Positions 35,125-56,094 of a stretch of 64,000 nt of DNA are shown here, piece after piece. Position 1 is the stretch's first letter; each line of letters starts with the position of its first letter. Origin of the DNA: Thermomicrobiales bacterium (GTDB lineage Bacteria > Chloroflexota > Chloroflexia > Thermomicrobiales > UBA6265); NCBI GenBank assembly GCA_030447415.1, contig JAUJOZ010000002.1, forward strand, positions 147,351 through 211,350, given 5' to 3'. The translations under genes and the position numbers were made by a program. The notes beneath the pieces are model-generated. The model made no database searches, was not told the origin of the DNA, and was given only the letters and a program-made list of their open reading frames with translations.

Positions 35125-35369
35125 CGCTCCCACCGGGAGGCGCTTCGTGATCGACGGCGTTTCCGCTTCCCTGCGTCCGTGCACCGTGCTCTCCCTTCTC
35201 GCGCCAACGCGCATCGAGTGCCCGAGGCAGCGGTGGTCGCAGGAGACGTGCCGGAGTTCACGGGGAATATGGGGGCGTCGTGACGGCCGTGTGGTGGGGA
35301 ACCTCAGGAGCGATGCGGGAGCGACGAGAGGGGCCGCGCCGGACGGGCCACGGTCCGGCCGAACGGATG

Positions 35370-36042
35370 CTTGGGGCGGATCGGCTTCCCGGATCAAGGC
35401 GGCGACGGTGTCATGGCCGCGGCGAAGAGCCATGGCGAGGGGCGTCCGGTCAGGACCGTTCGCCGCGCGGGGGTTGGCACCGTGGGCGAGCAGAAGCGCG
35501 ACGGCGTCCTCGGCGCTGGTGTCCGCGGCGAGATGGAGCGAACTCCAGCCGATCGATTTCCGGACGTCGGCGTCAGGACCGTGCGCCAGGGGGAGCGTGG
35601 CCAGCGCCGCAGGGTTCCCCGCGACCGCGGCGTGGAGGGGCGTGTTGCCCATCGCGTGGACGGAGCGGGCGCGGATGTCGGCGCCGCAGATGAGGAGGCC
35701 GCGGACGGCGGGCTCGTGGCCGAAGTGGGCGGCCAGGGCGAGCGGCGTCCAGCCGTCGGGGCTGTGCGCGTCGTGGAGCTCATGGTTCGCCGCCACGAGC
35801 GTCTCGAGGCGATCCGTGTCGCCGACGGCCGCGGCAGCGAGGACATCCAGGTCGGTGCCGGACGTGCGGGATAGCCACCGCTCCTCCGCTCGATGCCAGA
35901 AGATCGCGGTCAGGAGCGGGGACAGGCCGGCGGCATCGCGGGCGGTGGTCGGGTCCGGGTGGTGGTCGAGGAAAGTGCGAACCTCGGTCGCGTCGCCCAC
36001 CTTGACCGCCGGAAAGAAGGTATCCGTCGGGACGGCGGGCAC
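35370..36042 (-). CDS. ankyrin-repeat protein (3' end uncertain)
   Basis: GWTPLALAAHFGH, GNTPLHAAVAG, GWSSLHLAA, TPLAMA. Confidence 0.7.
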
Positions 36043-36365
36043 GGCCGCCGGGCTTGGCTGCGGCGTTGGGTCGGTTGCGGTTCGCGGCCTCCGTCTTGCC
36101 GACAGCGGGCCTCTAAACGAGGTGGGTAGTGTGAATGACCCCGTCGCAGATTGGTGTGCGTACAGACTGTGGCGACGCGAGCGGCGGGTGTCAACGAGTC
36201 GGGCGCTCGCTTCTGGCGCGTCCCAAGCCGCGCGGCGGTGTTCGGAGGGGAGCCCGTAGTGGGGGCTCCCGGTCGGCTCGTGGTGGCCCGCGACATGCTC
36301 CGGCACCATCCGGCGCGACGATCGAGCGGCGCGACCCTGGAGCGTGCAACGAGGGGCAAGAAGCG

Positions 36366-36875
36366 ATGACGGGCGGGAACCAGATCCATGACATCTTGGA
36401 GGAGCCGAACCGGCAGCGGCGGGAGCAAATCGTCGAGTTGCTGAAGCGTGCCTACTGGATGGAGATGGAGACGGTCATGAACTACGTCTCCAACTCCGTC
36501 AACCCGGACGGCGTCCGCGGGCGGGAGATCTCCGAGGCGCTGGCGACAGACATCCAGGAGGAGCTGGCGCACGCTCAGCAGTTCGCGCGCCGGATCAAGG
36601 AGCTTTACGGGGTGGTGCCGGGCTCGCTCGAGTTCACGCCTGAGCAAGCGTCGCTGCAGCCGCCCGAGCGTCAGACGGACGTCGTCCACGTCATCCGAGG
36701 CGTGATCGAGGCTGAGGATGGGGCCATCGCGCACTACAACCGGATCCTGGAGGCGACGGCGGATGTCGACCCGGTGACCAACGACATGATCGTCGACGTC
36801 CTGCGCGACGAGCAGGGCCACCGCCGGATGTTCGAGGGGTTCCTGCGGGAGTACGAGGCGGAAGGGCGGACGTAA
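36366..36875 (+). CDS. ferritin-like / bacterioferritin-like protein
   Basis: EMETVMNY, EELAHA, EAEDGAIAHY, DEQGH di-iron pattern. Confidence 0.85.
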   Translation: MTGGNQIHDILEEPNRQRREQIVELLKRAYWMEMETVMNYVSNSVNPDGVRGREISEALATDIQEELAHAQQFARRIKELYGVVPGSLEFTPEQASLQPPERQTDVVHVIRGVIEAEDGAIAHYNRILEATADVDPVTNDMIVDVLRDEQGHRRMFEGFLREYEAEGRT

Positions 36876-38148: not shown

Positions 38149-38637
38149 TTAGCGAAAGAGCCTCCAGGCGCTCGGGTCGCGGCCGGCCCGGCCGGCGTCG
38201 AAGTCGGCGGCGAATGCCTGGACTCGCAGCTCGCCCTGGAGGGCAAGCCGGGCCATGTACGCGGACAGGTCGGTGACGTCCGGGGCGTCGAGGTCGGCGA
38301 GCGCGAAGTAACGGGCGTCGTCGTTCTCACGGCCGTGCGGGGTCGGCGTGCCTCTCACCGGTTCGAGCAGAAACATGACGTACGTGTCGTTGGTCCGACC
38401 GTCGAAGCGGCTCCGCACGCCGCAGATCCCGAGCGCGCGGGCCTCGACGCCCGTCTCCTCGAGGACCTCTCGCACCACCGCCTGGTCGAGCGTTTCGCCC
38501 GGCTCGACAAGACCGCCCGGGAACATGTAGCGGCCCCTCGTCGACCCGTAGGTCATTCGCACCAAGAGGACGCCGCCGTTTTCGACGACGATGCCGCCGA
38601 CGGCGGTGACGTTGCGGGGCGGCGGTGGTTCAGCCAT
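38149..38637 (-). CDS. NUDIX hydrolase
   Basis: GGLVEPGETLDQAVVREVLEETG Nudix box. Confidence 0.9.
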   Translation of the reverse strand: MAEPPPPRNVTAVGGIVVENGGVLLVRMTYGSTRGRYMFPGGLVEPGETLDQAVVREVLEETGVEARALGICGVRSRFDGRTNDTYVMFLLEPVRGTPTPHGRENDDARYFALADLDAPDVTDLSAYMARLALQGELRVQAFAADFDAGRAGRDPSAWRLFR

Positions 38638-38789
38638 GGCGGTGTCCTCGTGGGTTTCGCGGCGCGTCCATCTCTCGAATGACGCAACCCCTATCGTCGT
38701 CGGGGAAAGCCGATGTCCTCCCTGGATCCGTTCTAGGATCGCCTGACACAGCCTAATTCATCGATCGCCGACGCCCGACGCCTCCGCAA

Positions 38790-39402
38790 TCAGCTCCTCG
38801 GCGTATCCGGTGCGAAGGTGCCCCGCCCGAGGAAGCCGGCGAACTCGGGGGCCAGGCACTCCATGTACAAGACGTCCCAGAGCCTACCGCCCATGAAATG
38901 CGCCTGCCGGCGCCGCCTGAACTGCCGAAAGCCCGCCCTTTTCGTACGCGCGCAGCCCGGCCAGGTTGTACTCGTAGACGGTGAGGATGACGCTGTGCAG
39001 GCCGAGGACCGTGAAGGCGTAGTCGACCATCAGCTTGGTCGTCTCGGTGCCGTAGCCCTTGCCGCGGCAGTCCGGCTCGCTGATCACGATGCCGTACTCG
39101 GCGGTGCGGTTGAGCCGGTCGATGTCCGCCAGGTAGGCGATGCCGATGGCACGCCGGGTCGCCCGCTCGTAGATCGTGACCAGGGCGTAGCGCTCGTCCT
39201 TCGTCACCTGATCGTAGGCCGCCGTTTCCTGCTCGACCGTCGTTGGCTCCGACCGGGCGAGAGTGCGGGTGGTGGCGAAGTCGTTGTTCCAGCGCTGGTA
39301 GGCCGCGATCAAATCGCGGCGCAGCGGCCCCAGCGCCACCCGTTCCCCCACGACGTTGAGGACCGACCGCCCGTCCACCACGTCGCCCTTGGGTGGTTCC
39401 AC
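38790..39402 (-). CDS. RimJ/RimL-type GNAT acetyltransferase (frameshift near 38935)
   Basis: RGKGYGTE, YEYNLAGLRAYEK, then GFRQFRRRRQ..DVLYME in the shifted frame. Confidence 0.8.
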
Positions 39403-39651
39403 TCCGCGCTCGGCCTCCTGTATCCACTATCCACCGCGGCTGTCCGCCTGAGGCGGGGGGCGAATCGCCCCACTTCGGTGGCCGAAGAGCGGCCCCCCCT
39501 TCTGGTGTGTCGCAACCACTGGTGGCGCTCCCCGTCGGTCGGTCAGCACGGCCTCGCAGAACCGAGGCTCGCCTACCTCGATGCCGCGTCGTTGGATTGC
39601 GGGTGGCTGCGGCTTGCTGGCACTCGCTGCGGGAGGACACCGAGCTCTTCC

Positions 39652-40155
39652 CTACAGCGACGGATCGGCGGCGGCACGGCCGGCTTCCCGCAGCCGCGCC
39701 GCGGCGAGGAGCACGGCCTCGGTGATCTGCGGGTAGGAGCCGCAGCGGCAGAGGTTGCCGGCCAGGTACGCCGCGACCTCCGCCGGCGTTGGATCCGGGT
39801 TCTCGGTGAGCAGCGCCTTGGTGCCGAGGATCATACCGGGTGTGCAGTAGGAGCACTGGAATCCCATCCGCTCGACGAACGCTTGCTGGATCGGGTCGAG
39901 CGCACCCTCGTCGCCGCTCAAGCCCTCGACAGTCTCGACGGTAGCGCCGTCGACCAGGGGCGCGAGGAGGAGGCAGGCGCTGAGCGGGGCGCCGTCGACG
40001 AGGACGGTGCACGCGCCGCAGATACCGATACCGCAGGTGGACCGGACACTGGTCAGGCCGCACGCATCGCGGAGGACTTCCAGGAGGGTCGCGTCCGTGG
40101 CGACCGTCAACTCCGTCGGCTCGCCGTTGAGGCGGAAGGCGACCGAGCGCTCCAT
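39652..40155 (-). CDS. Mo-hydroxylase 2Fe-2S subunit (CoxS/XdhC-like)
   Basis: CGIGICGACTV, QCSYCTPG, GNLCRCGSY. Confidence 0.92.
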   Translation of the reverse strand: MERSVAFRLNGEPTELTVATDATLLEVLRDACGLTSVRSTCGIGICGACTVLVDGAPLSACLLLAPLVDGATVETVEGLSGDEGALDPIQQAFVERMGFQCSYCTPGMILGTKALLTENPDPTPAEVAAYLAGNLCRCGSYPQITEAVLLAAARLREAGRAAADPSL

Positions 40156-42485
40156 CAGCCGTCGTCCTCGCCGGGACCGTTCCCGCCGCGCGTAGTGGTG
40201 GCCATGGCGCGGAGGACGCGCTCGGGGGTGAGCGGCAGCTCACGGACCCGGGTGCCGATGGCGCGGGCGACGGCGTTGCCGATGGCGGCCGGGATCGGCG
40301 GCAGCGCGATCTCGCCCACGCCGTGCATGTCGGCGCCGGGTTTCTCCAGCAGGTCGTGGGTGAGCGCCGCCGGAAGATCCATGAACGAGGGGATCAGGTA
40401 GTCGGACAGGTTCGCGTTCGTTGCCTGGCCGCCGTCGTAGACGATCTCCTCGAACAAGGCGCTGCCGAGGCCGAAGACCAGGTTGCCGACGTTCTGGAGC
40501 GCGGCGGTGTGTCGGTTGACCACCTTGCCGGCGTTGACGGCGCCGTGAGCGTGGAGGACGGTCACCTTGCCGGTGAAGGTGTCGACCTCGACCTCGACGG
40601 CGCCGGCGCCCTGGTGCCAGTGGGACGAGGCGATCCCCTGCCCGGTGTCGGGGTCGAGGCCTCCCTCGTTGCGGAACTCGGCGGTCTCGGTCATCTCCTG
40701 GCGGTGGGCACCGCGGACTAGCTCCCCGAAGCTGACCGCGCTCTCCGGCACGCCCGCGACCCGCACCGCGCCGCCGATGACCTCGAGGTCGGCGGGCGCG
40801 GCCTCCAGCCGCTCGGCGGCGAGGGCGATCAGCTGCTGGCGCAGACCGACGGCGGCTCGGGTCACCGCGTTGCCCATCATGAAGGTCGAGCGGCTGGAGG
40901 TCGTCCGGTTGTCGAACGGTGTCCGGGCGGTGTCAGGGTCGACGATGCGAATGTCGTCGTATGCAACGTCAAGCTCCTGAGCGGCGAGCTGGGCGAGGAC
41001 GGTCCGGGCGCCCTGGCCCATCTCCACGGTCGACGAGGCAAGAACGACACGGCCGTCACGGCCGACGCCGACCCGAGCCTCCGACCGGCTGGGGGAGGTC
41101 ATTCCCTTCATCACCAGGGCCAGGCCCTTAGCGCGCACCCGGCCGTCGCCAAAGTCTCGCGCCGCGCCGCCGTCCCAGTCGATGGCCGCCGCCGCGTGGT
41201 CGAGGCACGATTCGAAGCGGACATCGTGCAGCGTTTCACCCGTGGCGAAGGTGTCGCCCTCGCGGAGCAGGTTGCGCCGCCGGAACTCCAGCGGGTCGAT
41301 GCCGAGCCGGTCGGCGGCGATGTCCATCATCGATTCGGAGGCCCACGCCGCCTGGGTGACCGCGTACCCGCGGAAGGCGCCGGCCGGCGGCAGGTTGGTG
41401 TAGACGCAGGCCGAGTCGACGGCGACGGAGGGGATGTTGTAGGGGCCGACAACGCCGAAGCCGCCCTTCTGGGCCACGTTGGGCCCGCAGTCGGCGTACG
41501 CGCCGGTGTCCCAGGAGGCGTGGACCTCCTTGGCGACGATCCGCCCGTCGCGCTTCAGTCCGAGCTTGATCGTGATAACGGTCGCGTGTCGAGTCAGGGT
41601 CAGGAAGACCTCGTCGCGGCGAAGCGCGAGCCGGACCGGCCGCCCAGTGACCCGGGCCAGCAGCGCCGCCTGGGGCTCGATCCGCGGAAACACCTTCGCG
41701 CCGTAGGAGCCGCCGAGGGTATGGGTGAGGATCCGCACCCCCTCCGGTGGCAGGCCGAACAGTGCCGCCAGCATGTCGCGCACGTTGAACGGGGTCTGTG
41801 TCCCGGTGTGGACCGTCAGGCGGTCGCCCTCCCAAGCGGCAAGGGCGACGTGCGGCTCCATCGGGACGTGCTGGATGGCCGGGGTGCGGAAGGTCTCCTC
41901 GACGACGACATCAGCCTGGGTGAGCCTCTGGGGGACGTCGCCGTGGCGGAGGCGAAAGAGGTTGCAGCAGTTCGTCCCGAATTGGGGGCGGATGTCGAAG
42001 TAGAGAGCGGTGCCTTCGCGGTCCTGCTCCTCTTCCGGCCGCAGATCGTGGATCGGCGGCGCGCCCGGCGCGAGCGCGCTGAGCGGGTCGAAGACGGCCG
42101 GCAGCTCGTCGTAGATGACGTCGACGAGCGCGGCGGCCTCCTCGGCCGCCCGCGGGGTCTCGGCGGCGACGAGGGCCACGATGTCCCCGACGTAGCGGAC
42201 CCGGTCGAGCGCGACGACCGGCTGGTCCTTGATCTGGGGGCCGTAGGTCGGCGCCGGCGCCAGATCGGGGTGGGCGCGCAGGTCGTCACCGGCGACGACG
42301 GCGACAACGCCCGGTACTTCTCGCGCCGCCCCCGCGTCCACCGACACGACCCGGGCATGGGCCACCGGGCTGCGGACGACGGCCGCGTGCAGCATCCCCG
42401 GCAACGCCAGGTCCTGGACATACCGGATGGCGGCAGTGACCCGTTCCCGGGCATCGATCATCGGGACCGCGGCGCCGATGGACAT
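40155..42485 (-). CDS. xanthine dehydrogenase-family molybdopterin subunit
   Basis: HVPMEP, GGSYGAK, AFRGY, EMGQG, GVGE. Confidence 0.92.
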   Translation of the reverse strand: MSIGAAVPMIDARERVTAAIRYVQDLALPGMLHAAVVRSPVAHARVVSVDAGAAREVPGVVAVVAGDDLRAHPDLAPAPTYGPQIKDQPVVALDRVRYVGDIVALVAAETPRAAEEAAALVDVIYDELPAVFDPLSALAPGAPPIHDLRPEEEQDREGTALYFDIRPQFGTNCCNLFRLRHGDVPQRLTQADVVVEETFRTPAIQHVPMEPHVALAAWEGDRLTVHTGTQTPFNVRDMLAALFGLPPEGVRILTHTLGGSYGAKVFPRIEPQAALLARVTGRPVRLALRRDEVFLTLTRHATVITIKLGLKRDGRIVAKEVHASWDTGAYADCGPNVAQKGGFGVVGPYNIPSVAVDSACVYTNLPPAGAFRGYAVTQAAWASESMMDIAADRLGIDPLEFRRRNLLREGDTFATGETLHDVRFESCLDHAAAAIDWDGGAARDFGDGRVRAKGLALVMKGMTSPSRSEARVGVGRDGRVVLASSTVEMGQGARTVLAQLAAQELDVAYDDIRIVDPDTARTPFDNRTTSSRSTFMMGNAVTRAAVGLRQQLIALAAERLEAAPADLEVIGGAVRVAGVPESAVSFGELVRGAHRQEMTETAEFRNEGGLDPDTGQGIASSHWHQGAGAVEVEVDTFTGKVTVLHAHGAVNAGKVVNRHTAALQNVGNLVFGLGSALFEEIVYDGGQATNANLSDYLIPSFMDLPAALTHDLLEKPGADMHGVGEIALPPIPAAIGNAVARAIGTRVRELPLTPERVLRAMATTTRGGNGPGEDDG

Positions 42486-42696
42486 GAGTGGTGCCTACCC
42501 CTTCCTGTTCCGTTGCCCCGGCGGCGCCCGCCGTTTGGTGGACAGGTCGTCGTCTCGATCACACCGGCGCGCCCGGGTTGCGGGAGCGACGCCGGGGTCA
42601 CCCGGTTCCCCCATCACCAGGTCAGGCCGGGGACGAGAGTGCGGCAAGCAGCGCGCCGACGGACGTCGCGACGGGCGGGCATCGGTCGCGCCCGCC

Positions 42697-44418
42697 CTAC
42701 GCCGACAGCACCTCGACCTCGCCGGTGCTGCCGTTGACACGGACGCGCATGCCGGTCTGGATCGATTGGGTCGCGTTCATCGTGCCGACGACGGCCGGGA
42801 TCCCGAACTCGCGGGAGACGACGGCCGGGTGCGAGAGCTGGCCGCCGGAGTCGGTGACGAGACCGGCGACTTTGGTGAAGACGACGACCCAGGCCGGGTT
42901 GGTCATCTTGCAGACGAGGACGTCCCCCTGGCGGACCTGGTCGAACTCCTCGGGCGAGCTGACGTTGCGAGCCGGTCCCTCCGCAACCCCCGGCGAAGCG
43001 GGTAGACCCTGCACGACGGTCACCGGTCCCTGCTTCTCCGCCTTCAGCGAGTCGAAAAACTTCTCGGGGTAGCCCCACAACCCCTTGTATGGCTCCCCGT
43101 ACAGCGACCACCGGGTGACGGTGCCGACCCACTCGAGCGGGCGGACGCTCATCGCCTGCTCGCGCTCCTCCCGCCGCTGCCGCACGAGGCCGCGGGCGTC
43201 GACGGCATCGGGGTTGGCGGACAGCACGCGCAGCTCGTGGTAGGTCACGAAGATGGGGTCGTCCGGCTCGTCAAGCCGGTCCAGCTCGACCAGCTTGCGG
43301 CCGATTGCGATCAGGACGTGGCGGACGCGGGCGTAGGTTCCCTGGTCGATGTAGAAGTGGTGATCGGGGGTCAGCGGCATCATCCGCAACATCCCGTCCA
43401 TCGTCCGCTCGACCTTGGCCCGGCCCTCGGCGTTGTCCGTCGGGATCAGCGCCATCAGCTCGGCGATGGCGGCGTCGCGATCCTGGCGGAGCCGGCGGAT
43501 TGCCTCGGGGAAGGAGTAATCGGTCTGGAGGTAGCCCTGGAGAGCGGCAAGGATGGGAGCCGGGTTCTCCCGCCAGGTCGGGTAGATGTATTCGTGGCTG
43601 TAGATCGCCTTGTTGCCATACTCCCGCTTGTACCCGTCGAGCCAGGCCAGGAACTCCCTCCCCGCGTCGCTTTGGTCAAGCACCTGGAGGATCTCACGCG
43701 GAGTTTCCCTGGCGAAGGCAGCCTGGAGGTCGGGATCGGTCTTGATCCGCTCCTTCGCCTGCCAGAGCTCGCGGATCGCGTCCCAGTTCCGGTCATCGTC
43801 GGAGACCATGATCCGGCCGAGGAGGTCGGGATCGACGTCGCCCGCCACCTCCTTGACGGCACCCTGAAAGTTGAGGGTGGCCTGGAACTGGGAGAGGTTG
43901 AGGATCCAGTGGATCCGGAAGTGCCGCTCCTGGATGTCGATGGCGTCCTCGAAGAGGATCATCAGTTCCGGCAGGCTGGCGCTGTCGTAGGGAAAGCCGT
44001 CGAGGTAGTCGAAGTTGCGCAGGATCTCCGGACGCAGCCGGTTCTCCCACCACTCTAGGCCACGCTCGGCGTAGACCGGCATGACCATCCCGTAGTAGGG
44101 AGCGATCTCCTGGGCGTACGTCGGGTCGGGCGGGACGACGGCGGAGAAGACGTACCCCTGCACCTTCTTGGCGAGCCAGTCGACGCCGATGGGGGCGCCA
44201 AAGCGGCGGTAGAGGTAGTCGCAGGTGCTCCACCACCCTCCCAGGTCGAACCACATCGGGGAGATCGGCTGGGGGCAGTGGAGGTCGTCGTACCACCAGT
44301 GCAGCCGCTTCTCAGCCTCGTCACGCCACTCGACGGGATGCTCCTCGTCGCCGAAGAAGGTGGCGAGGACCTCGTCGTCCGCTGCCTGCGGCTGCTGCTC
44401 TGGAGCGTCGGTCGCCAC
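42697..44418 (-). CDS. dikinase subunit: substrate-binding + phospho-His swivel domains (RPH/PpsA-like C-terminal half)
   Basis: GLPASPGVAEG, TNPAW, TDSGGQLSHPAVVSREFGIPAVVG; long helical N-terminal domain; no ATP-grasp. Confidence 0.85.
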   Translation of the reverse strand: MATDAPEQQPQAADDEVLATFFGDEEHPVEWRDEAEKRLHWWYDDLHCPQPISPMWFDLGGWWSTCDYLYRRFGAPIGVDWLAKKVQGYVFSAVVPPDPTYAQEIAPYYGMVMPVYAERGLEWWENRLRPEILRNFDYLDGFPYDSASLPELMILFEDAIDIQERHFRIHWILNLSQFQATLNFQGAVKEVAGDVDPDLLGRIMVSDDDRNWDAIRELWQAKERIKTDPDLQAAFARETPREILQVLDQSDAGREFLAWLDGYKREYGNKAIYSHEYIYPTWRENPAPILAALQGYLQTDYSFPEAIRRLRQDRDAAIAELMALIPTDNAEGRAKVERTMDGMLRMMPLTPDHHFYIDQGTYARVRHVLIAIGRKLVELDRLDEPDDPIFVTYHELRVLSANPDAVDARGLVRQRREEREQAMSVRPLEWVGTVTRWSLYGEPYKGLWGYPEKFFDSLKAEKQGPVTVVQGLPASPGVAEGPARNVSSPEEFDQVRQGDVLVCKMTNPAWVVVFTKVAGLVTDSGGQLSHPAVVSREFGIPAVVGTMNATQSIQTGMRVRVNGSTGEVEVLSA

Positions 44419-44673
44419 GTCGCGTCCTCCTTCGCTCGTTCGTGCTCGGCGGCAGCCGAATGCCGCGGTTTCTCTCGGGAGGCACCCATCCCCGCGTCCG
44501 CGCGGGGTGAGGCCCAGGCGCTCAGCTGGATAAGCGCCCTGACGGGGTCGGATGCCCGGCCGGATCGGCGCCGACCCGCGGTGTCTCATCCGCCGGCCGG
44601 CGCCACGCGGCGCCGGCCGCTCGGTTGAGCGGGGCGCCCCCGTGCTTCGCCATGACCGCGCCCGACTCTCCAG

Positions 44674-44967
44674 CTACGCCGGGTCGATGGTCTCGTAGAA
44701 ATCGCGCTCGCGGCTCTCGAGCATGGGGACGACCCTGCCCAGGATGCTCTCCTTGAACGCGTCCGTCGCCATGTGCGCCTCGTAACCAGCGAGGTCGCGG
44801 TACTGCTCGTAGAGAAGAAACTTGCGGGGGTCGTCCACCGAGCGGTTGACGGTGTAGAGGACGCAGCCGGGCTCGGCACTGGAGATGGGGATCATCTGCT
44901 GGAGGATGGTGGCGACCGCCTCGTCCTTGCCTTCCTGGGTATAGTAGCGCGCCGCGACGACGTACAT
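44674..44967 (-). CDS. ABM / putative quinol monooxygenase
   Basis: SAEPGCVLYTV..FLLYEQY..AHMAT. Confidence 0.85.
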   Translation of the reverse strand: MYVVAARYYTQEGKDEAVATILQQMIPISSAEPGCVLYTVNRSVDDPRKFLLYEQYRDLAGYEAHMATDAFKESILGRVVPMLESRERDFYETIDPA

Positions 44968-45071
44968 ACCGTTGATGCCTCCTTCGCTGGGACCGGCACG
45001 GGGCCGGTTTTCCGGTGGGCGCGCGGTTCGCCGTGCCGCTCCATGGTGAGTGACGTGGCCGAGACAGCAGA

Positions 45072-46059
45072 CTATCCGGGCTTGACCCCCCTCCCGCACG
45101 ACCCGATTCCGCAGGACGCCGATCCCTTCGACCTCCAACTCGACGATGTCGCCCGGCTGCAGCCAGCGGGTCGAGCTCCAGACCGGAGCCACTCGTCACG
45201 GTGCCGGAGCCCCAGAGCTCGCCGGCGTGGATCGTCTCGCTCTGGGAGACGTGCGCGATCAGGTCGGGGAACGAGAACTGGCGACCCCTGGAGTGCCGAC
45301 CAGACCTCGCCGTTGACGCGGGCGACCATCCGCAGGTTGTCGATGTCGATCTCATCCGGGGTGACGAGGTAGGGGCCGACGGCGTTGCCGGTGTCGAAGT
45401 CTTTCCCCTGCTCGGGCCCATGCCGACCGGGGCCTCGCGCATCTGCTGGTCGCGGGCGCTGAAGTCGTTCCAGATGGTGTAGCCGGCGATGTGCCGGGCG
45501 GCGTCGCCCGCCGCGATGTCCTTGCCGCGGCGCCCAATCACCACCCCAACTCCAGCTCGAAGTCAAACTTCTCGCTGTACGGCGGCCAGTGAACGACCGC
45601 GTCCGGCCCGACGACGGTATCAGGGTCGCCCTTGTAGTAGGCCGGTACCTCGTAGAAGGCGGCGGGGACTCGCCGCCGCGGCCGAGAGCCCGGCTCGCCT
45701 GCTTCATGTGTCCTCGAAGGTCAGGAAGTCGCGCATCACCCGCGGTCGGGGGAGGGGAGCGAGGAGGCGGACCTCGTCGGGGGGCGTAGGTCGTGCGGGC
45801 GCCGAAGGCTTCCTCCGTCGTGCCGGCAGCGTCGATGGCCCGCGCCGCCGCCGCCATCCCGAGCGCGCCCGTGCCAAGGAAGAGGACCATGTCGCTCGAT
45901 CAGCAGTGCGGCGAGGCGCTCGGCGTCGCAGCCGGGGTCGGTCCGTTCCAGGTGGGCGGCGTAGGCCGCTTGGAGATCGACGAGTCGGCGGTCCATGGCG
46001 GCGCCGATGCGGCGCAACGGCCCCGCCGGCGTCGGAACCTCGAAGGTCGCCAGCTTCAT
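45072..46059 (-). CDS. fumarylacetoacetate hydrolase-family protein (multiple frameshifts)
   Basis: MKLATF, RDFLTFE, YTIWNDFSARD, GKDFD..GPYLVTPDE, GSGT, LQPGDIVELEVEGIG. Confidence 0.8.
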
Positions 46060-46985
46060 GCGGGCAGCTCCTTTCCGTTCCAGTCCCCTCCGGGCTCGTG
46101 GCCGGCGCGGGATAGCGCGGCCCGTATTGCCCGAGCGACGAAGACACGGATCATGCGGCGGCGGTACCAGGCCGAGCCGCGCAGGTCGGACAGCGGGTCA
46201 ATGGCGGCGGCGTAGGCGTCGGCGACCGCTTCGATCGCCCCGTCGTCGAGAGGGCGGCCGGTAGTGGAGGCGAGCACATCGCCAATCCGCTGGGGCCGCT
46301 CCGCGACGGCGCCGACGACCACTTCAAGTCGCCGGCAGGCACCGTCCGGCGCGAGGTCTACCATCGCGGCGACGCCGACGCAGGGCCGGTCCTCATGCGA
46401 GCGGGAGCGGTACTTGAGGTAGGCGGCGCCGGCCCCGGGTGGCACCGGCGGCACCACGACCTCGGTGATCAACTCGTCCGGCGCGAGGACCGTCTCGTAG
46501 TGTCCGACGATTAGATCGCGCACGAGGATCGGGGCGCTCGCCGCTCGGGCCGACGGCGTGGACCGTCGCGCCGAGCGCGGCGAGGACGGTCGGGGGTCGG
46601 AGGCGTAGTCGGCGTCGGCAAGGTTGCCGCCGACGGTCGCCTGGTGGCGGACGCGGACGTTGGCGACGTCGGCGTAAGTGTCGGCGAGGGCCGACCACCC
46701 CCGTCGCACCAGGGGTGAGCGCTCGACGGCGCGGTGGCGGGTCATGGCCCCCAGCCGCAGACTGCCGTCCGGGTCGATCGCGATCCGGTCGAGGCCGGGG
46801 ACCCGACGCAGGCTGACGAGGACGGACGGAAAGAGCAGTCCCTGCCGCAGGACGAGCGTCAGCCAGGTACCGCCGGCGAGGAGCTTGGCGTCTTCGCCGA
46901 AGGAGGCCAGCACGTCGAGCGTCTCCTCGACGGTTGCGGGCTCGCTCCAGTCGAACTCAGGCATCGGCTGCCTCGAAGGGGCCAC
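46056..46985 (-). CDS. Mo-hydroxylase FAD subunit (CoxM-like; local frameshifts)
   Basis: LLAGGT, VRHQATVGGNL, DLRGSAWYRR. Confidence 0.88.
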   Translation of the reverse strand: MAPSRQPMPEFDWSEPATVEETLDVLASFGEDAKLLAGGTWLTLVLRQGLLFPSVLVSLRRVPGLDRIAIDPDGSLRLGAMTRHRAVERSPLVRRGWSALADTYADVANVRVRHQATVGGNLADADYASDPRPSSPRSARRSTPSARAASAPILVRDLIVGHYETVLAPDELITEVVVPPVPPGAGAAYLKYRSRSHEDRPCVGVAAMVDLAPDGACRRLEVVVGAVAERPQRIGDVLASTTGRPLDDGAIEAVADAYAAAIDPLSDLRGSAWYRRRMIRVFVARAIRAALSRAGHEPGGDWNGKELPA

Positions 46986-47000
46986 AGCGGCAGGGCCGAC

Positions 47001-47481
47001 CTAGCCATCGGTGGCCCCTGCCGCATCGGACGTGGCGAGGACGCGTTCGGCGCAGGCGACGAACTGCTCGCTCATCTTGCGCGCGGTGTCGCGGATGACG
47101 GTTTGGCCGAAACGACCAAGCGCGCCCTGGATGGCGAGGTCCATCGCGTAGGCGACCTCGGTCCTGTCCTCTGAGGCCGGGGCAAGCCGGACCGACACGT
47201 TTGCCTGGACCATGCTGCTGGTGCCGCGATCAGTGCCGCGGGCGACGAGGGCGAGGCGCTCCGGCGGCCGCGCCTCGGCGAGCTCGACCTCCATCGCGAA
47301 GCCTCGCCTTGAGCGGGCCGACCTTGACCTGGATTCGACCGCGATAGTTCTGCCCCTGGTCGTCGACCGGCTCGACGTCGTCGACGCCGGGCATGCACGC
47401 GCTGGAGCGAGGAACGTCGAGGAAGAACGCCCAGACGTCTGCGACCGGGGCGGCGATGGTGAAGCGCTCCTCGATGATCAC
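47001..47481 (-). CDS. CoxG/SRPBCC protein (frameshift near 47300)
   Basis: VWAFFLDV..CMPG..VKVGPLKA, then GALGRFGQTVI. Confidence 0.8.
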
Positions 47482-48087
47482 GGGCGTTCCTCGGAGGTTT
47501 GGCCGGCGGCGGTGGCGCGGGTCGCCTTCGCAGGCGTCGACGCGGGCGACCGCCTCGTACAGCGGGTGGGCCAGCTCGCGCGCCGCCGGGACGCGGATAC
47601 GATCGAGCATGTGCCGGAACTGGGCGCGCACCTCGTCCGGCCCGAGACCGTTCTGGCGGGTCGGGATTCGGGCAAGGAACCGGTCGACGTTGACCTCCAG
47701 GAAGCTGAGGCTGTCGGCGGCCTGGAGGAGGTCGGCCTCCGGCCACCCACCATCCTCGTGGACGGTGATCAGGGCGGTCGTGTCGTGAACGAGTTGCTCG
47801 TCGACGCCCTGCCCGCGCAGCCAATCGCCGACGATCCGGGCCGAGCGCTCGGCGTGGCGGCGCCGGTAGTCGGGGTCGGCCGGGCCTCGACGGGCGTCGA
47901 AGGTGGGAGCATCCGGGGCGGGAAAGTGGCGCTCGATGTCGTGGGTGAGGGCGGCGAGGAGCATCGCGGTCGAGGTCCTCGGCGCGAGGACGCGGAGCCA
48001 GTCGGGCGTGCGCCGCAGGTGGTCAGCGTTCCAATACGGGGCGATCCAGGCGTCGGCGCGGCGAAGGATGTCGGCGTCGGGCGTCAT
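47478..48087 (-). CDS. HD-domain / DUF4202-like protein
   Basis: ADHLRRT, AALTHDIER, HAERSA, HEDGG, LQAADSLSFL. Confidence 0.75.
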
Positions 48088-48240
48088 GGGCGCGTCATCG
48101 GCTGGTCGCCGACGCGCGAGGGGTCGCACCGGCCATCGCCGGCGGCAAGGCGGGACGATGCACCGGGCCTGCGCGGTGCCGGCCGCCAACTCATCTCTGT
48201 GACTAACCGTTCTCCCGACGAGCCCAATCGATACCCTCGG

Positions 48241-49212
48241 TCACAGCGTCGTGATCGGCCGGCTCTGGAGCAGGTAGAGGTGGCCGTCCTCGATGCCCCA
48301 CTCGATGTCCTGGGGGGCGCCGAAGAAGGCCTCGACCCGTTCGCCCAGGGCGACAAGCTCGGCGAGCTCAGCGTCGTCGAGCACCCGAGCCTTGACCCGT
48401 TCGGGGGGCACCTCGGCCTCGATCAGGCCCCCTCGCTCCGGGTCACGGATAAGCATGATCGTCTTGGGCGGGACGAGAGAGCGGACGACGCGGCCGTCCG
48501 GGCGGGCCAGCTGGTAGTTATCGGGGACAACCAGGCCGGAGACGACCGCCTCGCCGAAGCCCCAGGTTGCCTCGACGGTCATCCGGTCGCGGCGACGGCT
48601 CACCGGGTCGGCGGTGAAGAGGACGCCCGACTTCTCGGGGATAACGAGGCGCTGGACGACGACGGCCATTCCCGTGTCGGCGAGCGAGCCCTTGGAGCGA
48701 CGGTAGAAGAGGGTGTGGGCGCCGAAGAAGGAGGCCCAGCAACCGCGCACCCGGTCGATGACCGCCTCATCTCCAACGACGTTGAGGAACGTCTCCTGCT
48801 GGCCGGCGAAGGAGGCGGCCGCCGAGTCCTCGGCGATGGCGCTGGAGCGGACGGCAACCGGCGCGTCCGTGCCGTCCGTGAGGCGGCGGTAGGCCGCGAC
48901 GATCGCCGCTTCGATCTCCGCCGGGAGCGGGAGGTCGCGGATCAGGCGCTGGACCCGTTCCGCCGCCTCATTCAGCGCCGAGGGACGTTCGACGTCGAGC
49001 CCACCGAGGAGGCTGAGGAGGCGCCCGCGGGCCGCATTGGCGTCGAGGAAGCGGGCGAACGCCTCAGCGCAGACGACGAAGCCCGGCGGGACGGCGAGCT
49101 CGGCGACCGTCATCCGGCTCAGGCTGGCGCCCTTGCCGCCGGCGGTCTCGACGACGGCGCAGCCGTCTTCGCCGAACCAGCGGATCGTCGTCGCGGCCTG
49201 GGACGTGACCAT
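48241..49212 (-). CDS. dikinase ATP-grasp subunit (PEP/pyruvate-binding domain only)
   Basis: GGKGASL, AVRSSAIAED..SFAGQQETFLN, GEAVVSG, PQDIEW, LQSRPIT. Confidence 0.9.
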   Translation of the reverse strand: MVTSQAATTIRWFGEDGCAVVETAGGKGASLSRMTVAELAVPPGFVVCAEAFARFLDANAARGRLLSLLGGLDVERPSALNEAAERVQRLIRDLPLPAEIEAAIVAAYRRLTDGTDAPVAVRSSAIAEDSAAASFAGQQETFLNVVGDEAVIDRVRGCWASFFGAHTLFYRRSKGSLADTGMAVVVQRLVIPEKSGVLFTADPVSRRRDRMTVEATWGFGEAVVSGLVVPDNYQLARPDGRVVRSLVPPKTIMLIRDPERGGLIEAEVPPERVKARVLDDAELAELVALGERVEAFFGAPQDIEWGIEDGHLYLLQSRPITTL

Positions 49213-49355
49213 GCGTGCCCCTTTAAATCCTGGTCCTGATATCTACGCCGGCGACGTCTGCATTGCGTCGGCCACGATCATCCCCCGGCGCGGCGCGGGA
49301 GTAGGCGACCGGGCACGCCACGCGGCGCCCGTAGCACCCTCTCAACCCTCAACCC

Positions 49356-50078
49356 TCAGTCCTCGACGATCGCCACCGCGCGGACCGGAGCGGCGGTGGA
49401 GTTGACCCACTTGACCGGGAAGACCGACAGCGTGAAGCCGTGGGGGCGCGGGAGCTGGTCGAGGTTGGCGAGGTTCTCGAGATGGTAGTACTCGCGCTCT
49501 CGCATCACCAGATGGGCTTCCCAGAACTGCTTGCGCTCGAACATCGCCCAGACCGGCGGGTCAAACGTGATCGCATCGGTGCCCATCAGTTTGATCCCCT
49601 GGTCGATTAGCCGGAGGGTGGCCTCGCGGGTCATCCCGGCATGGTCGGTCAGGTAGCGCTCCTCGTCGTTGTAAGTGCTGGCGCCGGTCTGGATGAGGAC
49701 GATATCGAGCGGCTTGAGGGTGTAGTCGATGCGGCGCAGCGCGTCCTGCACCTCGGCGGCGGAGATACCGGCCCCCTTCTCCTTGTGGCGGAAGTCGAGG
49801 ATCACCCCGTCGCCGTAGCAGTACTCAAGCGGGATCCCTTCCGGGCCGGGGGCGTCGTCGTTGAGGTGGCGAAGGGAATCCATGTGGGTGCCGACGTGGT
49901 CGCTGAGCTCGACGCGGTAGGAGGCGGTCAGCCAGGTGGCACCGTGCTGGGCGGCGCCGATCCGCTCGGCGAACTCCTCCCACGTCTCGTACATCTCCAG
50001 CGTCGGTTTGACGATCCGGGGAAAGGTCAGCATGTCGTTGTGGACGGGCATGCTGAGATCGATGAGCGTTCTGGTCAC
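49356..50078 (-). CDS. cyclase-family (kynurenine formamidase-like) metallohydrolase
   Basis: DLS, HVGTHMDSLRH, GTD, ENLANL, APVRAVA. Confidence 0.88.
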   Translation of the reverse strand: MTRTLIDLSMPVHNDMLTFPRIVKPTLEMYETWEEFAERIGAAQHGATWLTASYRVELSDHVGTHMDSLRHLNDDAPGPEGIPLEYCYGDGVILDFRHKEKGAGISAAEVQDALRRIDYTLKPLDIVLIQTGASTYNDEERYLTDHAGMTREATLRLIDQGIKLMGTDAITFDPPVWAMFERKQFWEAHLVMREREYYHLENLANLDQLPRPHGFTLSVFPVKWVNSTAAPVRAVAIVED

Positions 50079-50144
50079 TCGCGTTCCTCCCGTCGCCGCT
50101 CCGAACCCCTGGCCGGCGTTCTACCCCGGGCAGGGCGGGAGGCG

Positions 50145-50172
50145 ATTCTAGAGACGGGGCGAGCGGTGTCAA
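50145..50172 (-). promoter_or_regulatory. sigma70-like promoter of the catabolic operon
   Basis: TTGACA-N16-TAGAAT on the minus strand. Confidence 0.6.
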
Positions 50173-50471
50173 GGCGTGGTGGTCCGCGGTTGGCCGGCGA
50201 CGACCACTGTCCGTTTCCTCCGCCCGGCTGCCCAACACCGAGGCCGTGGCGACGAGCAGGGCGGGCACGACATCGGTGCCCCCGGCGACCGTCGCGACCT
50301 TCAGCCCGACGCGCAGCGCGTCATCGCGGTCGTGCGCTCGTTCGTCAATCCGCTGCCACTAGCCGCTGGCCAGGGAGGACGCTTCGGTGAGGGGTGCCGC
50401 GGAGGACGCCGGGAGGATCGCCCCGCATCGGGGTTGCCCGGCGGGTCATCCTGGCACTGTTCCGAGTCAGA

Positions 50472-53400
50472 CTAGGTCGAGAGCTCGATGCGCAGCGAGA
50501 CGACCTCGAACGGGCGCACGGGGAGGCGGACTGTCGAGCCATCGTCAGCCAACGATGGAGTCGCGTCTGCGGCCGGCTCTTCGAGCAAATCGACTCGATC
50601 GATGCGCCGCACCGGCGAGGTGAAGCGGAGTGTCGCTGTCCCCCTTGCGCCGTGTGGCTCGTAGAGACGGAGGATGATCCCAGCCCTGTCCTCGGATCGC
50701 TTCAGGCCGCCGAGGGCGAGTCGAAGTCCCTCGGTTGCCAGGAGGCCGCTGCTCTCCGGCAGGTGCCCTGCAGTCGGTGCAACCGGCACCGTCATGAGGG
50801 GGGAGTTCAGGGCGAACGCTTCGGTGGTGACGTCCGCCTCGGTCCAATCGCCCGGGTGGGGAAGGAGGCTGTAGGTGAAGCGGTGCTCGCCCCGATCCGC
50901 CATCGGGTCTGGATAAAGCGGGCCGCGCAGGAGGCTCAGGGTCAGCACGTTGCCGTGGGCGGAGTGGCCGTACTTCCCGTCGTTCAGGAGCGCGACGCCG
51001 TAGCCCGGCTCGGAGAGATCAGCGAAGCGATGGCCGCTCACCTCGAAGCGGGCGGCATCCCAGGACGTATTGCGATGGGTCGGCCGCCGAACGACGCCGT
51101 ACATCGTCTCGTAGGTGGCCTCATGCGTATGGATGGCGAGCGGGAAGCGCGCCTGGAGATACACCTGGCGCTCCTGCCAGTCGATCCCGGTGACGATGTC
51201 CAGGCGGCGGGAGCCGGCGAGCAGACGATAGGTCTGCTCGATGCGGGAACCCCGCCAGGTCCGGCGGACGCGCACGGCGCCGCGCAGCGGTCCCGCCTCG
51301 ATCACGTCGATCGCCTCGACGCCCCCGACCTCCTCCCCCTCCTGCTCGTAGCTTTCCTCGATGTCCCAGGCGTCGTACGTCCGCGGCTTGTCGACGTAGG
51401 CCCAGAGCTGGTTGCCGCGACCGGCGAGGACCTCGCGGCCGTCGGCGACGGTGTCGACCAGCCGGTGGATCGTGCCATCCGCACCAACTTCTGCGCGGAG
51501 GAACTCGTTCTCCAGGAGCGCCCCCCCATTCCCGCCTGCTGCGCGGACGCCTGGGACGGTGGGCGGAACCGGGTCCGCGCCGTTACGGACCACGGCCACG
51601 CTTAACCAGCCCAGGCCCGGCACGACGCGCTGGGGCGCATGGACGAGCAGCCCGTCAGTGGTCGGCTGGGCCGGGAGCGGCGCGCCGTTGGGGTCGGCAA
51701 CGATCGTGTCGGCGTCCCGCTCCGGTAGGAGGAATGTCAGGGGACGGGGAGTCAGCGCCGCGTTGGCGACGATGAGCCGCTCGCCGGCCGGGGCGCCCTC
51801 GACGAGACCGCCGATATGGGTAAGCGCCGCGTCCCGCGCCCCGATCGCCGCGCGGACGACCCCTTCCAGTTCTCGGTGGGTGTCCCGGTAGACCTCGGCG
51901 ATGGAGGAGCCGGGAAGGATGTCGTGGAACTGGTTGAGCAGGAGCGATTTCCAGGCGGTCTCCAGCGCCTCCTGGGGATAGGAGAAGCCGTGGAGGTGCG
52001 CTAGTGCGGCGAAGGCCTCGGCCTCGAGCAGGCGGTGCTCAGCGGCGCGGTTGAGCGCCTTGACATGGGCTTGGGTGGTCAGGGTGCCCCGGTGAAACTC
52101 CAGGTAGAGCTCGCCGGTCCAGATCGGCAGCCCGTCGCTCGGGAGACCGGCGAAGAACTCCTCGACGTGGGCCATCCGGAGCCGCGGAAGCGCCGGGAAA
52201 TCGTTGATTCGCGCGTAGTTCTCCAGCATCCGAGCCGACGGTCCGCCGCCGCCGTCGCCCCAGCCGAAGGCAAGGAGGCTCTCGGGGTGGTGATGCTTGC
52301 CGCGGAAGTTGTGCCACGTTCCGAGGGTGTCGAGCGGGGCGACGTTGCCGTTGTAGCCGTGGGCCGGGGGCAGGTTGCGAAACATGTGCGCCGTCACCCG
52401 GCTGCCGTCCAGCCCCTCCCACGTGAACAGGTCGTGGGGGAAGAGGTTCTCCTCGTTCCAGGTCAGCTTGATCGTGAAGAAACCCCGGATACCGGCGCCG
52501 CGCAGCAGTTGAGGGATGCCGCCGGAGAAGCCGAAGACGTCCGGGAGCCAGGCGACCGTCGCCCGCGTGCCGAACCACCCCTCGAAGGCGCGCTGACCGT
52601 AGAAGAGTTGGCGGACGAACGCCTCACCGCCGGTGATCTGGCAGTCCGGCTCCACCCAGGAGCCGCCAACCGGCTCCCAGCGGCCTTCCGCCACCCGCTG
52701 CCTGACGCGGGCGAAGAGGTCCGGCGCATCCTCCTCGATCCAGGCGTAGAGCTGGGCCGAGGACTGGTTGAAGGTGAAGTCCGGGTAGCGGTCCATCAGG
52801 TCGAGCACGGTGGCAAAGGTCCGGCGCCCCTTGCGCCGCGTCTCGGCGACGGGCCACAGCCACGCGAGATCGATGTGGGCGTGGCCCGTGAGCGCCAGGC
52901 GCCCAACCGGAGGGTAGTCGCGCCTCAGTTGGTCGAGCCGCCGGACGAGCTCGGCACGAGCGGCCTCGACCGCCTGGAGCGCCGCTTCCGGCAGCGGCTC
53001 CAGCGGGCGGGGCGGTGGTGGGAGGTGCCAGATGGGCGTCGAGTAAGGATGGACTTCGTACGCCTCAACCGCGTAGCTCGGCGGGATGGAGTTGACGCCG
53101 CTGCCAATTGGGTTCACGTACCCGAGCGCCAGCCGGGTGAGCGCCACGTCGCTCGCGGACGGCCAAGCGGGTCCGAGTACGGTGAAGGCGGCGTCGGCGG
53201 CGTCGAGCAGGAGCGGGGCGATCTCGTGCTGGCCGAGCCTCCTGCGCGGCCTGGAGGAGCATCGTCAGGTCCCGCTCCAGGCCGCGCAGCTCGGCGTGGG
53301 GCACGACGAGGTGAGCCCGCTCCAGACGGGGCTCGGCGACGTGGCTGCCGAACATCCCCTTCGGCACCACCTCCGCCTCGACGGCGACGCACTCGCCGCC

Positions 53401-53735
53401 CCGCGCCGGGTCGGCGATGCGGAAGCTGTGGTGAAAGGGGTCGAGTCCGGCCTGGAGCCCAGTCGAGAGGCGGACGAACCCTTCGCCGCCGAGCCAGAGT
53501 TCCAGCTCGACCGGCCGACCTGCCCACGCATCGGGGACGGCCGCGGCGGCCGCGAAGCGGACCGGCGTCTCGACGACCGGCCAGAGGTCCCCGAGCTGAA
53601 TCGGCCGGGCCTCGCCGTCGCCCGCGGTGAAGGACCAGTCCGTGATTGGATGCTCCCGCGCGTTGCGCCAGGCGCGGATCTCTTCCAGCCGCCGGGTGAG
53701 CCGCTCGAGGCGACGGTTTCAGAGGTGCTAGGCAC
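50472..53735 (-). CDS. GH38 alpha-mannosidase (5' frameshifts)
   Basis: GHAHIDLAWLW, WLPDVFG, GWGDGGGGP, ELYLEFHRG, NQFHDILPGSSI. Confidence 0.9.
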
Positions 53736-53952
53736 GAGCAAACTCCTCCGGCATGGATACGGACCCGGCCGCCATCCGCCGTCGGGTCGCGCCCAACAGA
53801 TCGCCGTCCAATCCCGGCTCGGGCGGCCGTGGTGCAAAGACCGCGGACCAGGCCGGAGAAGAGCGGCTTCCGACCCCGATTCCCGATCCTGCCGCAGGAG
53901 CTTAGCCCCAGGCTATCTGCAGCGGATGGAGCGCGCCCCCGGGTTCATCCGC

Positions 53953-54903: not shown

Positions 54904-54918
54904 CGGTCGCGCTCCTCC

Positions 54919-55851: not shown

Positions 55852-56039
55852 CGATCGCCCTCCACGTCGCGATACCGACCGGCAACGATCGAACGTCCGC
55901 GATACCGACCGGCAACGATCGAACGTCCGGTCAGGGATGGGGCCGACGGGAGCCCTCGTGTGGATGGGGGGTGTCGCTACACTAATGGTTCGCCCTCCAC
56001 GTGGCTAGCCCGACCGGCAACGTTCGACCGTCCTTCAGG
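55807..56039. repeat. degenerate direct duplication of the permease start region plus an exact 30-bp tandem repeat
   Basis: 55807-55935 resembles 55943-56039; CGCGATACCGACCGGCAACGATCGAACGTC x2 at 55868-55927. Confidence 0.85.
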
Positions 56040-56094
56040 TGGGGGGCCGCCGGCGGCACGGGCACCACCCTTGGCCGCCGGCGGCGAACCGCGG

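Follow-up and report, generated by a model that had tools for sequence, protein, structure and literature searches.

Molybdenum (Mo) hydroxylases of the xanthine-oxidase family are textbook ATP-independent enzymes. Here we describe a ten-gene operon from a Thermomicrobiales bacterium (assembly GCA_030447415.1, contig JAUJOZ010000002.1) in which the subunit genes of such a hydroxylase are interleaved with genes for the two halves of a predicted ATP-dependent dikinase; the operon lies on the minus strand at 39652-50172 of a 64,000-nucleotide (nt) stretch, called the window below, whose positions serve as coordinates throughout. The closest described system is the 3hpd cluster of Ensifer adhaerens HP1 where, according to the accessible part of the preprint, a four-component Mo hydroxylase, HpdA1-4, with a separate SRPBCC subunit converts 3-hydroxypyridine to 2,5-dihydroxypyridine (bioRxiv 10.1101/2020.01.08.898148). 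In a heterologous host hpdA1-4 alone were inactive on 3-hydroxypyridine, and conversion was obtained when orf9 and orf10, described as a 'pyruvate-phosphate dikinase' and a 'PEP-utilizing protein mobile subunit' (PEP, phosphoenolpyruvate), were added; knock-outs of orf9 and of orf10 each abolished growth (bioRxiv 10.1101/2020.01.08.898148). Two-part dikinases are otherwise described from phenol metabolism. In the Hpe pathway, HpeHI phosphorylates, HpeCBA acts on the phospho-form only and HpeD dephosphorylates (PMC9618137; PMC12167813), and HpeH, CreH and PpsA are ~45% identical among themselves (PMC12167813). As far as the available sections of that paper go, all of the characterised two-part relatives phosphorylate small phenols (PMC12167813).

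Compared by descriptions only, the window operon resembles 3hpd in joining a Mo/2Fe-2S/FAD hydroxylase and a separate SRPBCC/CoxG subunit to both kinds of dikinase gene, and a GntR regulator is found near the Ensifer cluster as it is near most relatives of the window cluster. They differ in what accompanies this core, which is the maleamate pathway hpdBCDE in Ensifer and a cyclase, an HD protein, an FAH-family protein and an ABM-family protein in the window, and in that the window dikinase halves are interleaved with the Mo subunits. With HpeHI, CreHI and PpsAB the operon shares the division into an ATP-grasp protein and a substrate/swivel protein together with the T/SxxGGxxxH motif, and with the Hpe pathway it shares a candidate dedicated phosphatase after the phosphate-requiring step; in the portions of the published accounts at hand, however, the partner of those dikinases is a carboxylase (for CreHI, other enzymes) and never a Mo hydroxylase. 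No UbiD-type carboxylase or CoA ligase was found among the window open reading frames (ORFs) scanned by Pfam. Rifampicin phosphotransferase (RPH) and PigC/RedH have the same three domains, but as single fused chains. Anaerobic phenol degradation, too, involves both a split dikinase and an enzyme of the xanthine-oxidase family, and the pair of HcrABC (4-hydroxybenzoyl-CoA reductase) and phenylphosphate synthase resembles the window in that it supplies the best solved and NCBIfam matches for CoxL and CoxS; the scores, however, are far below the cut-offs, and CoxM is without the Cys-rich insertion of HcrABC. The sequence-only reading of this stretch, drawn from its letters and a list of its ORFs, had spoken of an undescribed pathway, which is too strong, since dikinase-dependent Mo hydroxylation has already been reported genetically for 3hpd in the part of the preprint available to us (bioRxiv 10.1101/2020.01.08.898148). 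Such a dikinase is genuinely coupled to a Mo hydroxylase in many bacteria, by a mechanism still unexplained, and the coupling has already been reported once on genetic grounds. Beyond that preprint, a literature search that left subscription journals largely uncovered returned no paper tying such a dikinase to a Mo hydroxylase.

The protein families, their order, the promoter-like site and a very strong linkage of dikinase and Mo hydroxylase across phyla are observed directly. Pfam scans uphold the ten-gene minus-strand run and all ten family assignments of the sequence-only reading (Table 1), and the gene order bears out its remark that five genes separate the two dikinase halves, with the halves interleaved with the Mo subunits. 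The first half, a protein of 323 amino acids (aa) that we call Grasp, carries PPDK_N and no second domain, in particular no swivel or acceptor domain, and matches PEP synthase (PDB 8a8e, 2e-71) and RPH's ATP-grasp domain (5hv6, 6e-60). In the second, a PpsA-like protein of 573 aa, residues 222-571 align to RPH 534-866. Its AlphaFold model (mean predicted local distance difference test score, pLDDT, 80; predicted template-modelling score, pTM, 0.77) has RPH as its only whole-length match (Foldseek, E 4e-15, template-modelling score (TM) 0.59, ~610 columns), at 16-18% identity in the fold alignment, while the next matches (E 0.05) cover the swivel domain alone. The swivel motif, TDSGGQLSH, lies at 522-530, and its D523, G525, G526 and H530 are invariant among 77 sequences; T/SxxGGxxxH is, in the available account of HpeH, the motif with the phospho-carrier His (PMC12167813). 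The 573-aa protein scores below every NCBIfam cut-off, the top match being the unnamed PRK08296.1-5 (181 bits vs 578), with RPH at 124.7 vs 999 and PigC at 126.5 vs 1300, and a database protein of the same length, P0001, also carries PF27448. Judged by sequence and model, the two proteins appear to be the halves of an RPH-like small-molecule dikinase distinct from the named members, so that the split proposed earlier, a stand-alone ATP-grasp subunit and a substrate domain with a swivel bearing TDSGGQLSH, holds. Co-folding of the two halves gave a score of 0.19 against a mark of 0.32, no controls having been run. No genuine fused form was found among the 8000 longer candidates scored, which gave one match (P0244, 1070 aa). 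This apparent dikinase-CoxM fusion (PEP-utilizers with FAD_binding_5) was rejected: long Arg/Pro/Ser-rich out-of-frame stretches in its alignments show that a PpsA-like and a CoxM gene next to each other on a high-GC contig have been read through in garbled frames. The 120 matches listed in the normal length range measure 448-588 aa.

The PpsA-like protein is far more conserved than its partner Mo subunits. Across 77 sequences from at least six phyla it has 75 invariant columns, many of them in the acceptor domain, where they include D44, D45, H47, W62, W63, H170, D209, N211, W212, D213, H275, E276, H353, H354, Y356, D358, Q359 and R366. Among 8000 candidates scored, 4114 were relatives of this protein at E <= 1e-10, and the records of homologues ~60% identical to it name Moorella, Chloroflexota and Luteitalea as sources. 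Species-representative genomes, when scanned, yielded at least 600 stretches, 583 of them encoding a relative, from which the best 80 were kept; we counted genes within 10 kb in all 80, and separately in a well-flanked set of 52 loci that have 6 kb or more on either side. In the wider set CoxL is found at 66 loci, CoxS at 65, CoxM at 59, Grasp at 54, the cyclase at 24 and the HD protein at 23, with FAH or ABM at 10-12 and a detectable CoxG at 3-4. In the well-flanked set the counts are 50/52 for CoxL (absent from L005 and L080), 50/52 for CoxS, 46/52 for CoxM, 42/52 for Grasp and 21/52 for the cyclase. These loci span Thermomicrobiota, Chloroflexota, Acidobacteriota, Actinomycetota, Bacillota, Spirochaetota and Pseudomonadota, and the conservation of a dikinase/Mo-enzyme cluster, which the sequence-only reading had named as a check, is confirmed by the CoxL and Grasp counts in at least six phyla.

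The Thermomicrobia loci L001, L022, L028, L031, L042, L045 and L067 repeat the window gene order in full, and the megaplasmid of Thermomicrobium roseum DSM 5159 carries, at about NC_011961.1 56118-66286, an intact, annotated operon in the window order, behind a GntR gene and without CoxG. In a tree of the 77 PpsA-like sequences the window protein falls inside a Thermomicrobia clade of 9 rows (SH-aLRT branch support 99, quick method). The Mo subunits come in three types, that of the window, that of Acidobacteria and Acidimicrobiia, and that of Bacillota and Treponema, which are ~35% identical to one another, and the dikinase does not track these types. PpsA-like proteins from Acidobacteria share 57-60% identity with that of the window although their CoxL shares only 36%, and the Acidimicrobiia CoxL is 55-60% identical to the acidobacterial type, yet the PpsA-like protein of the same group is only ~46% identical to the acidobacterial one. 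The window-type CoxL label changes 6 times on the PpsA tree, which argues for a dikinase module that has switched between different Mo enzymes. These comparisons make the dikinase look portable, a module whose pocket stays fixed. In the plasmid collection, T. roseum is the sole member of the window's dikinase family, and the only full-length plasmid relatives outside Thermomicrobium are ~24-27% identical (Rhodococcus proteins ~26%), their identity as Hpe or Cre proteins being unconfirmed. A Diaphorobacter plasmid match that was considered as a link to 3hpd proved to be a different, Mo-free dikinase cluster, and a search from the proteobacterial member L055 returned only unnamed proteins or proteins of metagenome-assembled genomes.

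Two further gene associations were seen beside the relatives. In L046 (8654-9958), L058 (7845-9898) and L081, the T. roseum locus (1529-3632), the PpsA-like gene or operon has a UPF0261 (Tm-1-like ATP-binding) gene directly upstream; in L058 and T. roseum this gene is followed by a PEP-hydrolase-like one, and in L046 the UPF0261 ORF alone was seen. Loci of the Bacillota/Treponema type have a conserved ORF of ~295-303 aa with no Pfam match after the ATP-grasp gene (L024 12753-13643, L025 6087-6971, L026 12753-13640, L064 8230-9141, L070 9921-10832 and L077 12740-13651), and a gene of the metallo-beta-lactamase fold is often next.

The Mo enzyme itself is, on its sequence, a xanthine-oxidase-family hydroxylase with L, M and S subunits and a separate CoxG, outside the named equivalogs. 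CoxL has GVGE at 722-725, in keeping with GxGE, which we take to be the catalytic-Glu motif of Mo hydroxylases, and its sequence does not contain AYxCSFR, presumably the active-site loop of CO dehydrogenase. Scores against the CO dehydrogenase models of NCBIfam are 271 for a cut-off of 991 and 307 for a cut-off of 950, so the enzyme does not classify as an aerobic CO dehydrogenase, and all NCBIfam equivalogs scored the Mo subunits below cut-off. The best matches of CoxL in the PDB are the alpha subunit of 4-hydroxybenzoyl-CoA reductase (4-HBCR; 1rm6, 2e-98), 6-hydroxypseudooxynicotine dehydrogenase (7dqx, 3e-85) and quinoline 2-oxidoreductase (1t3q, 2e-78). The 4-HBCR equivalog cut-offs are missed by all three subunits (alpha 488 vs 994.55, beta 96.3 vs 404.55, gamma 161.9 vs 257.8). 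CoxS has the eight cluster ligands expected of its two domains, Cys 41, 46, 49 and 61 together with 101, 104, 136 and 138, and CoxM has 2 Cys only. Rfam and tRNA scans of the whole window gave no match, and the empty Rfam scan speaks against a molybdenum-cofactor riboswitch in it.

Among the accessory proteins, the cyclase is 80% identical to that of L022 and belongs to the wider PF04199 family only, scoring 42.3 bits against the arylformamidase model TIGR03035 (cut-off 223); among solved structures, isatin hydrolase (5nna/5nnb, E 1e-9) comes nearest to the cyclase. In the accessible text on the family, the cyclase-family HpoH and the PKC protein of pAO1 are credited with, or proposed for, opening of the trihydroxypyridine ring (PMC6214936). 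The ring-opening role that the sequence-only reading gave to the cyclase would be in keeping with the opening of pyridine-ring lactams credited to the family there (PMC6214936). The HD protein has DUF4202/HD as its nearest ESM Atlas clusters (0.97) and invariant residues H49, D50, H78, H110 and D125, with H23 nearly invariant. Its model (pLDDT 92) has the Bacillus subtilis HD hydrolase YpgQ as best fold match (TM 0.65, probability 1.00), and other HD hydrolases match it too. It occurs in 21/52 well-flanked loci. We scanned 18 loci without it and found a PHP-domain gene in 5/18, His_Phos_1 in 3/18 and a gene of the metallo-beta-lactamase fold in 11 of the same 18; in the Bacillus locus L023, His_Phos_1 stands beside cyclase, CoxG, ABM and FAH genes, and PHP is present in L069. 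The earlier suggestion that the HD protein is a phosphatase is plausible, given its predicted fold nearest to YpgQ and the PHP or histidine-phosphatase genes that replace it in other lineages. Its H..HD..H..H..D pattern could also be that of a diiron oxygenase, which we disfavour, no such oxygenase being among the fold matches listed. The FAH protein is of the HpcE/acylpyruvase/diketo-acid hydrolase kind, and the intact L022 copy matches HpcE (1gtt, 3e-28) and L-2,4-diketo-3-deoxyrhamnonate hydrolase (8gsr, 4e-28), while the ABM protein matches 2bbe (2e-12). A GntR-FCD regulator lies near the operon in 5/6 loci in one scan and in 9/18 in another, as well as in T. roseum; the scans of the window ORFs found none adjoining the window operon.

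Our best reading, on which we put about even confidence, is that the operon is a Thermomicrobia catabolic cluster for a hydroxylated heteroaromatic, such as a 3-hydroxypyridine-like compound or a pyridone. By analogy with the described systems, the substrate would be phosphorylated, its phospho-form hydroxylated by the Mo enzyme and then dephosphorylated by the HD protein, and the ring finally opened and cleaved by the cyclase, ABM and FAH proteins, a sequence of events whose chances of being right or wrong we judge evenly balanced. In the first step, modelled on the families and their precedents, Grasp would load a phosphate of ATP onto His530 of the 573-aa protein, and the swivel domain would carry it to the RPH-like pocket, where the substrate would be O-phosphorylated (ATP to AMP + Pi). 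In the second, the Mo/FAD/2x[2Fe-2S] enzyme, consisting of CoxL, CoxM and CoxS with CoxG, would hydroxylate the phospho-form using water; we propose that the free hydroxy compound would be a poor substrate because its OH leaves the ring too electron-rich for attack by a nucleophilic Mo-OH. The phosphate would then be removed by the HD-domain protein, the cyclase-family amidohydrolase would open a lactam ring or take off a formyl group, and ABM and FAH would convert and cleave the open-chain keto acid.

Several observations weigh against this reading. Four of the ten operon genes (FAH, CoxG, CoxM and HD) are frame-damaged, and the operon would be non-functional in this organism if the insertions and deletions (indels) are real. 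The invariance of the acceptor domain, 75 columns in 77 sequences beside Mo subunits that are ~35% identical, seems to fit one universal acceptor better than lineage-specific aromatics. Many relatives adjoin genes of sugar type, including GFO/IDH/MocA, a xylose-isomerase-like TIM barrel, SIS, ROK, transketolase and transaldolase, and the window operon itself has a GH38 gene and a sugar ABC transporter upstream of it; such neighbours are a warning against presuming an aromatic N-heterocycle as the substrate. Families of the maleamate pathway are absent from the Pfam scans of the window ORFs, and in 10/18 of the scanned loci that lack HD no phosphoesterase was recognisable. The closest solved relative of CoxL, 1rm6, is a reductive dehydroxylase and not a hydroxylase. 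Lastly, within the accessible part of the preprint, the authors of the 3hpd study saw no intermediate and left the role of orf9 and orf10 open (bioRxiv 10.1101/2020.01.08.898148).

The frame damage could mean that FAH, CoxM, CoxG and HD carry true indels and that the cluster survives as a decaying remnant, dead in this organism, which we consider unlikely. The homology of FAH is spread over all three frames, and within 45168-45899 a frameshift-aware alignment to L022 called for 8 corrections and one to T. roseum for 9; the corrected read-through is identical to L022 at 253/327 positions and to T. roseum at 254/329, and the frame reaches ABM without an in-frame stop. CoxG changes frame near 47300, with COXG profile positions 3-55 in one frame and 57-139 in another, and is 94/154 identical to the 154-aa CoxG of L022 with a single correction at ~47300. 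In CoxM two shifts that compensate each other, near 46596 and 46532, leave ~21 out-of-frame residues, 'RPSSPRSARRSTPSARAASAP', and the HD gene is missing its own stop, so that its frame continues into the start codon of CoxG. Grasp, ABM, the 573-aa protein, CoxL and CoxS required zero corrections, and intact versions of the operon exist in T. roseum DSM 5159 and at L022. Some of the changes fall at runs of G or C (e.g. 45781, 45088), others do not, and a shift in a single direction throughout was ruled out by the alignment, which gave both extra and missing bases. The number of changes, 12-13 within 45088-47543, would suit decay, as would the missing GntR-FCD regulator of the relatives, the GH38 gene that abuts the promoter region and the mobile-element genes elsewhere in the window. 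On the other side, these changes all lie in one stretch of 2.5 kb over four adjacent genes with the other six spared, which resembles a local problem of sequence quality. Similar damage is seen in the gene for the B12-dependent methionine synthase, metH (30470-34288, plus strand), which switches frame at least three times between ~33000 and 34276 and whose B12-binding and activation domains are scattered over frames 1, 2, 0 and 1. Moreover, the FAH read-through is 77% identical to both L022 and T. roseum, which are 84.7% identical to each other, so that it keeps in step with its neighbours and shows no excess of substitutions. With the damage confined to 2.5 kb, metH affected likewise and FAH diverged no further than the genes around it, we favour, with fair assurance, a local fault of sequence or assembly over decay.

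The kinship of CoxL with 4-HBCR could be taken to mean that the chemistry is reductive, with the phenolic or lactam OH turned by ATP into a phosphate leaving group and removed by a 4-HBCR-like Mo enzyme, or with the phospho-ester otherwise handled reductively. The best solved and NCBIfam matches of CoxL and CoxS are indeed the alpha and gamma subunits of 4-HBCR, and the core of dikinase and Mo enzyme, without ABM or FAH, is also found in strict-anaerobe lineages (Lachnospiraceae, Oscillospiraceae, Christensenellaceae and Treponema), with a close homologue in Moorella. We nevertheless find such an ATP-driven dehydroxylation improbable. All three 4-HBCR scores given above are far under their cut-offs, and CoxM, with its 2 Cys, is without the extra Fe-S cluster insertion that we take to be a feature of the beta subunit of 4-HBCR. 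A dedicated phosphatase would serve no purpose in a dehydroxylation, and we also count against it the ABM protein of the window type and the presumably aerobic lineage in which that type is found. The sole genetic precedent, 3hpd, yields a net hydroxylation in the part of its description available to us.

It could also be hypothesized that the dikinase serves the Mo enzyme, in its activation, repair or regulation, or acts on one common small molecule, with the phosphoesterase as its antagonist. An acceptor domain that is near invariant over three types of Mo subunit and a module re-paired across the tree with 6 label changes are what such a role would predict, and the 3hpd data as far as accessible, inactivity without orf9 and orf10 and no intermediate, fit it equally well. 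Against it, the 573-aa protein folds like the rifampin-binding and swivel domains of RPH, the characterised two-part relatives all phosphorylate small phenols in the sections of the literature at hand, and we found no literature precedent for dikinase-dependent maturation of a xanthine-oxidase-family enzyme. We give this explanation little weight, and phosphorylation of a hydroxylated heteroaromatic ahead of its hydroxylation is the reading that we keep.

A dikinase that lies almost always beside one set of Mo hydroxylases points to ATP-dependent Mo hydroxylation, and we put the linkage at several hundred species-level genomes, with the gene neighbours counted in the best 80 loci. More tentatively, with the balance somewhat against it, transient O-phosphorylation (ATP to AMP) may be a general and portable device that lets Mo hydroxylases attack hydroxy-heteroaromatics that could not otherwise be oxidised, the window operon being its Thermomicrobia form. 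If so, one module with a near-invariant pocket would have come to partner three or more lineages of Mo enzyme and several non-homologous phosphatases, in bacteria from soil, hot springs and the gut that belong to six phyla or more. The comparative data supply a cultured organism with the intact operon (T. roseum DSM 5159), a candidate phosphatase step and a sharply conserved acceptor pocket, and gut Bacillota encode the family as well, in a setting in which Mo enzymes that act on heterocycles from food and drugs draw current interest.

Table 1. Features of the operon and of the mobile-element-like stretch, in window positions
Feature	Position	Strand	Basis or remark
Sigma-70-like promoter, TTGACA-N16-TAGAAT	50145..50172	-	11/12 consensus matches; putative, sequence only
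Cyclase family, 240 aa, GTG start	49356-50078	-	Pfam PF04199, E 9e-32
ATP-grasp component (Grasp), 323 aa	48241-49212	-	Pfam PPDK_N only, E 2e-95
DUF4202/HD protein, proposed phosphohydrolase	~47478-48087	-	Pfam DUF4202, 34.7 bits vs cut-off 35.1 (just below)
CoxG/SRPBCC subunit	47001-47481	-	Pfam COXG, profile split between two frames
CoxM-like FAD subunit, 309 aa	46056-46985	-	Pfam FAD_binding_5 + CO_deh_flav_C
FAH-family protein, HpcE/acylpyruvase type	~45074-46059	-	Pfam FAA_hydrolase pieces in three frames
ABM-family small protein, 97 aa	44674-44967	-	Pfam ABM, E 3e-18
PpsA-like acceptor + phospho-His swivel component, 573 aa	42697-44418	-	Pfam PEP-utilizers at 553-623
CoxL-like molybdopterin-binding large subunit, 776 aa	40155-42485	-	Pfam hammerhead, MoCoBD_1, MoCoBD_2
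CoxS-like small subunit, two [2Fe-2S] domains, 167 aa	39652-40155	-	Pfam Fer2 + Fer2_2
DDE_3 transposase	10918-11727		Mobile-element-like stretch
Large serine recombinase	17435-19375		Mobile-element-like stretch
HTH proteins	17289-17513 and 20425-21426		Mobile-element-like stretch

The promoter-like site stands where the sequence-only reading had placed it, and is the sole such site in 38500-50600, where 50 shuffles averaged 0.4, in a window of ~69% G+C. The GTG of the cyclase (50078) starts 67 nt downstream of it. The FAH ATG overlaps the CoxM stop (ATGA), and the CoxS start overlaps the CoxL stop by 1 nt; overlaps of 1-4 nt at several junctions such as these form the pattern expected of co-translated genes. 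The ABM ATG is preceded by GGAGG.

Directly upstream of the operon, at 50472-59655 on the minus strand, the window encodes a GH38 alpha-mannosidase, two ABC permeases, a solute-binding protein and a GntR-HTH/solute-binding fusion. On its other side a GNAT acetyltransferase and a NUDIX hydrolase (38152-39426, minus strand) follow CoxS after a gap of 226 nt; no terminator-like site was found between CoxS and these genes, which are not conserved beside the operons of the relatives. The mobile-element-like stretch at 9500-21500 holds many ORFs without family matches besides the genes listed in Table 1. At 34357-36474 on the minus strand there is an ORF of 706 aa whose product has several ankyrin repeats besides a weak CBM-like match, which is unusual for a bacterial chromosome.

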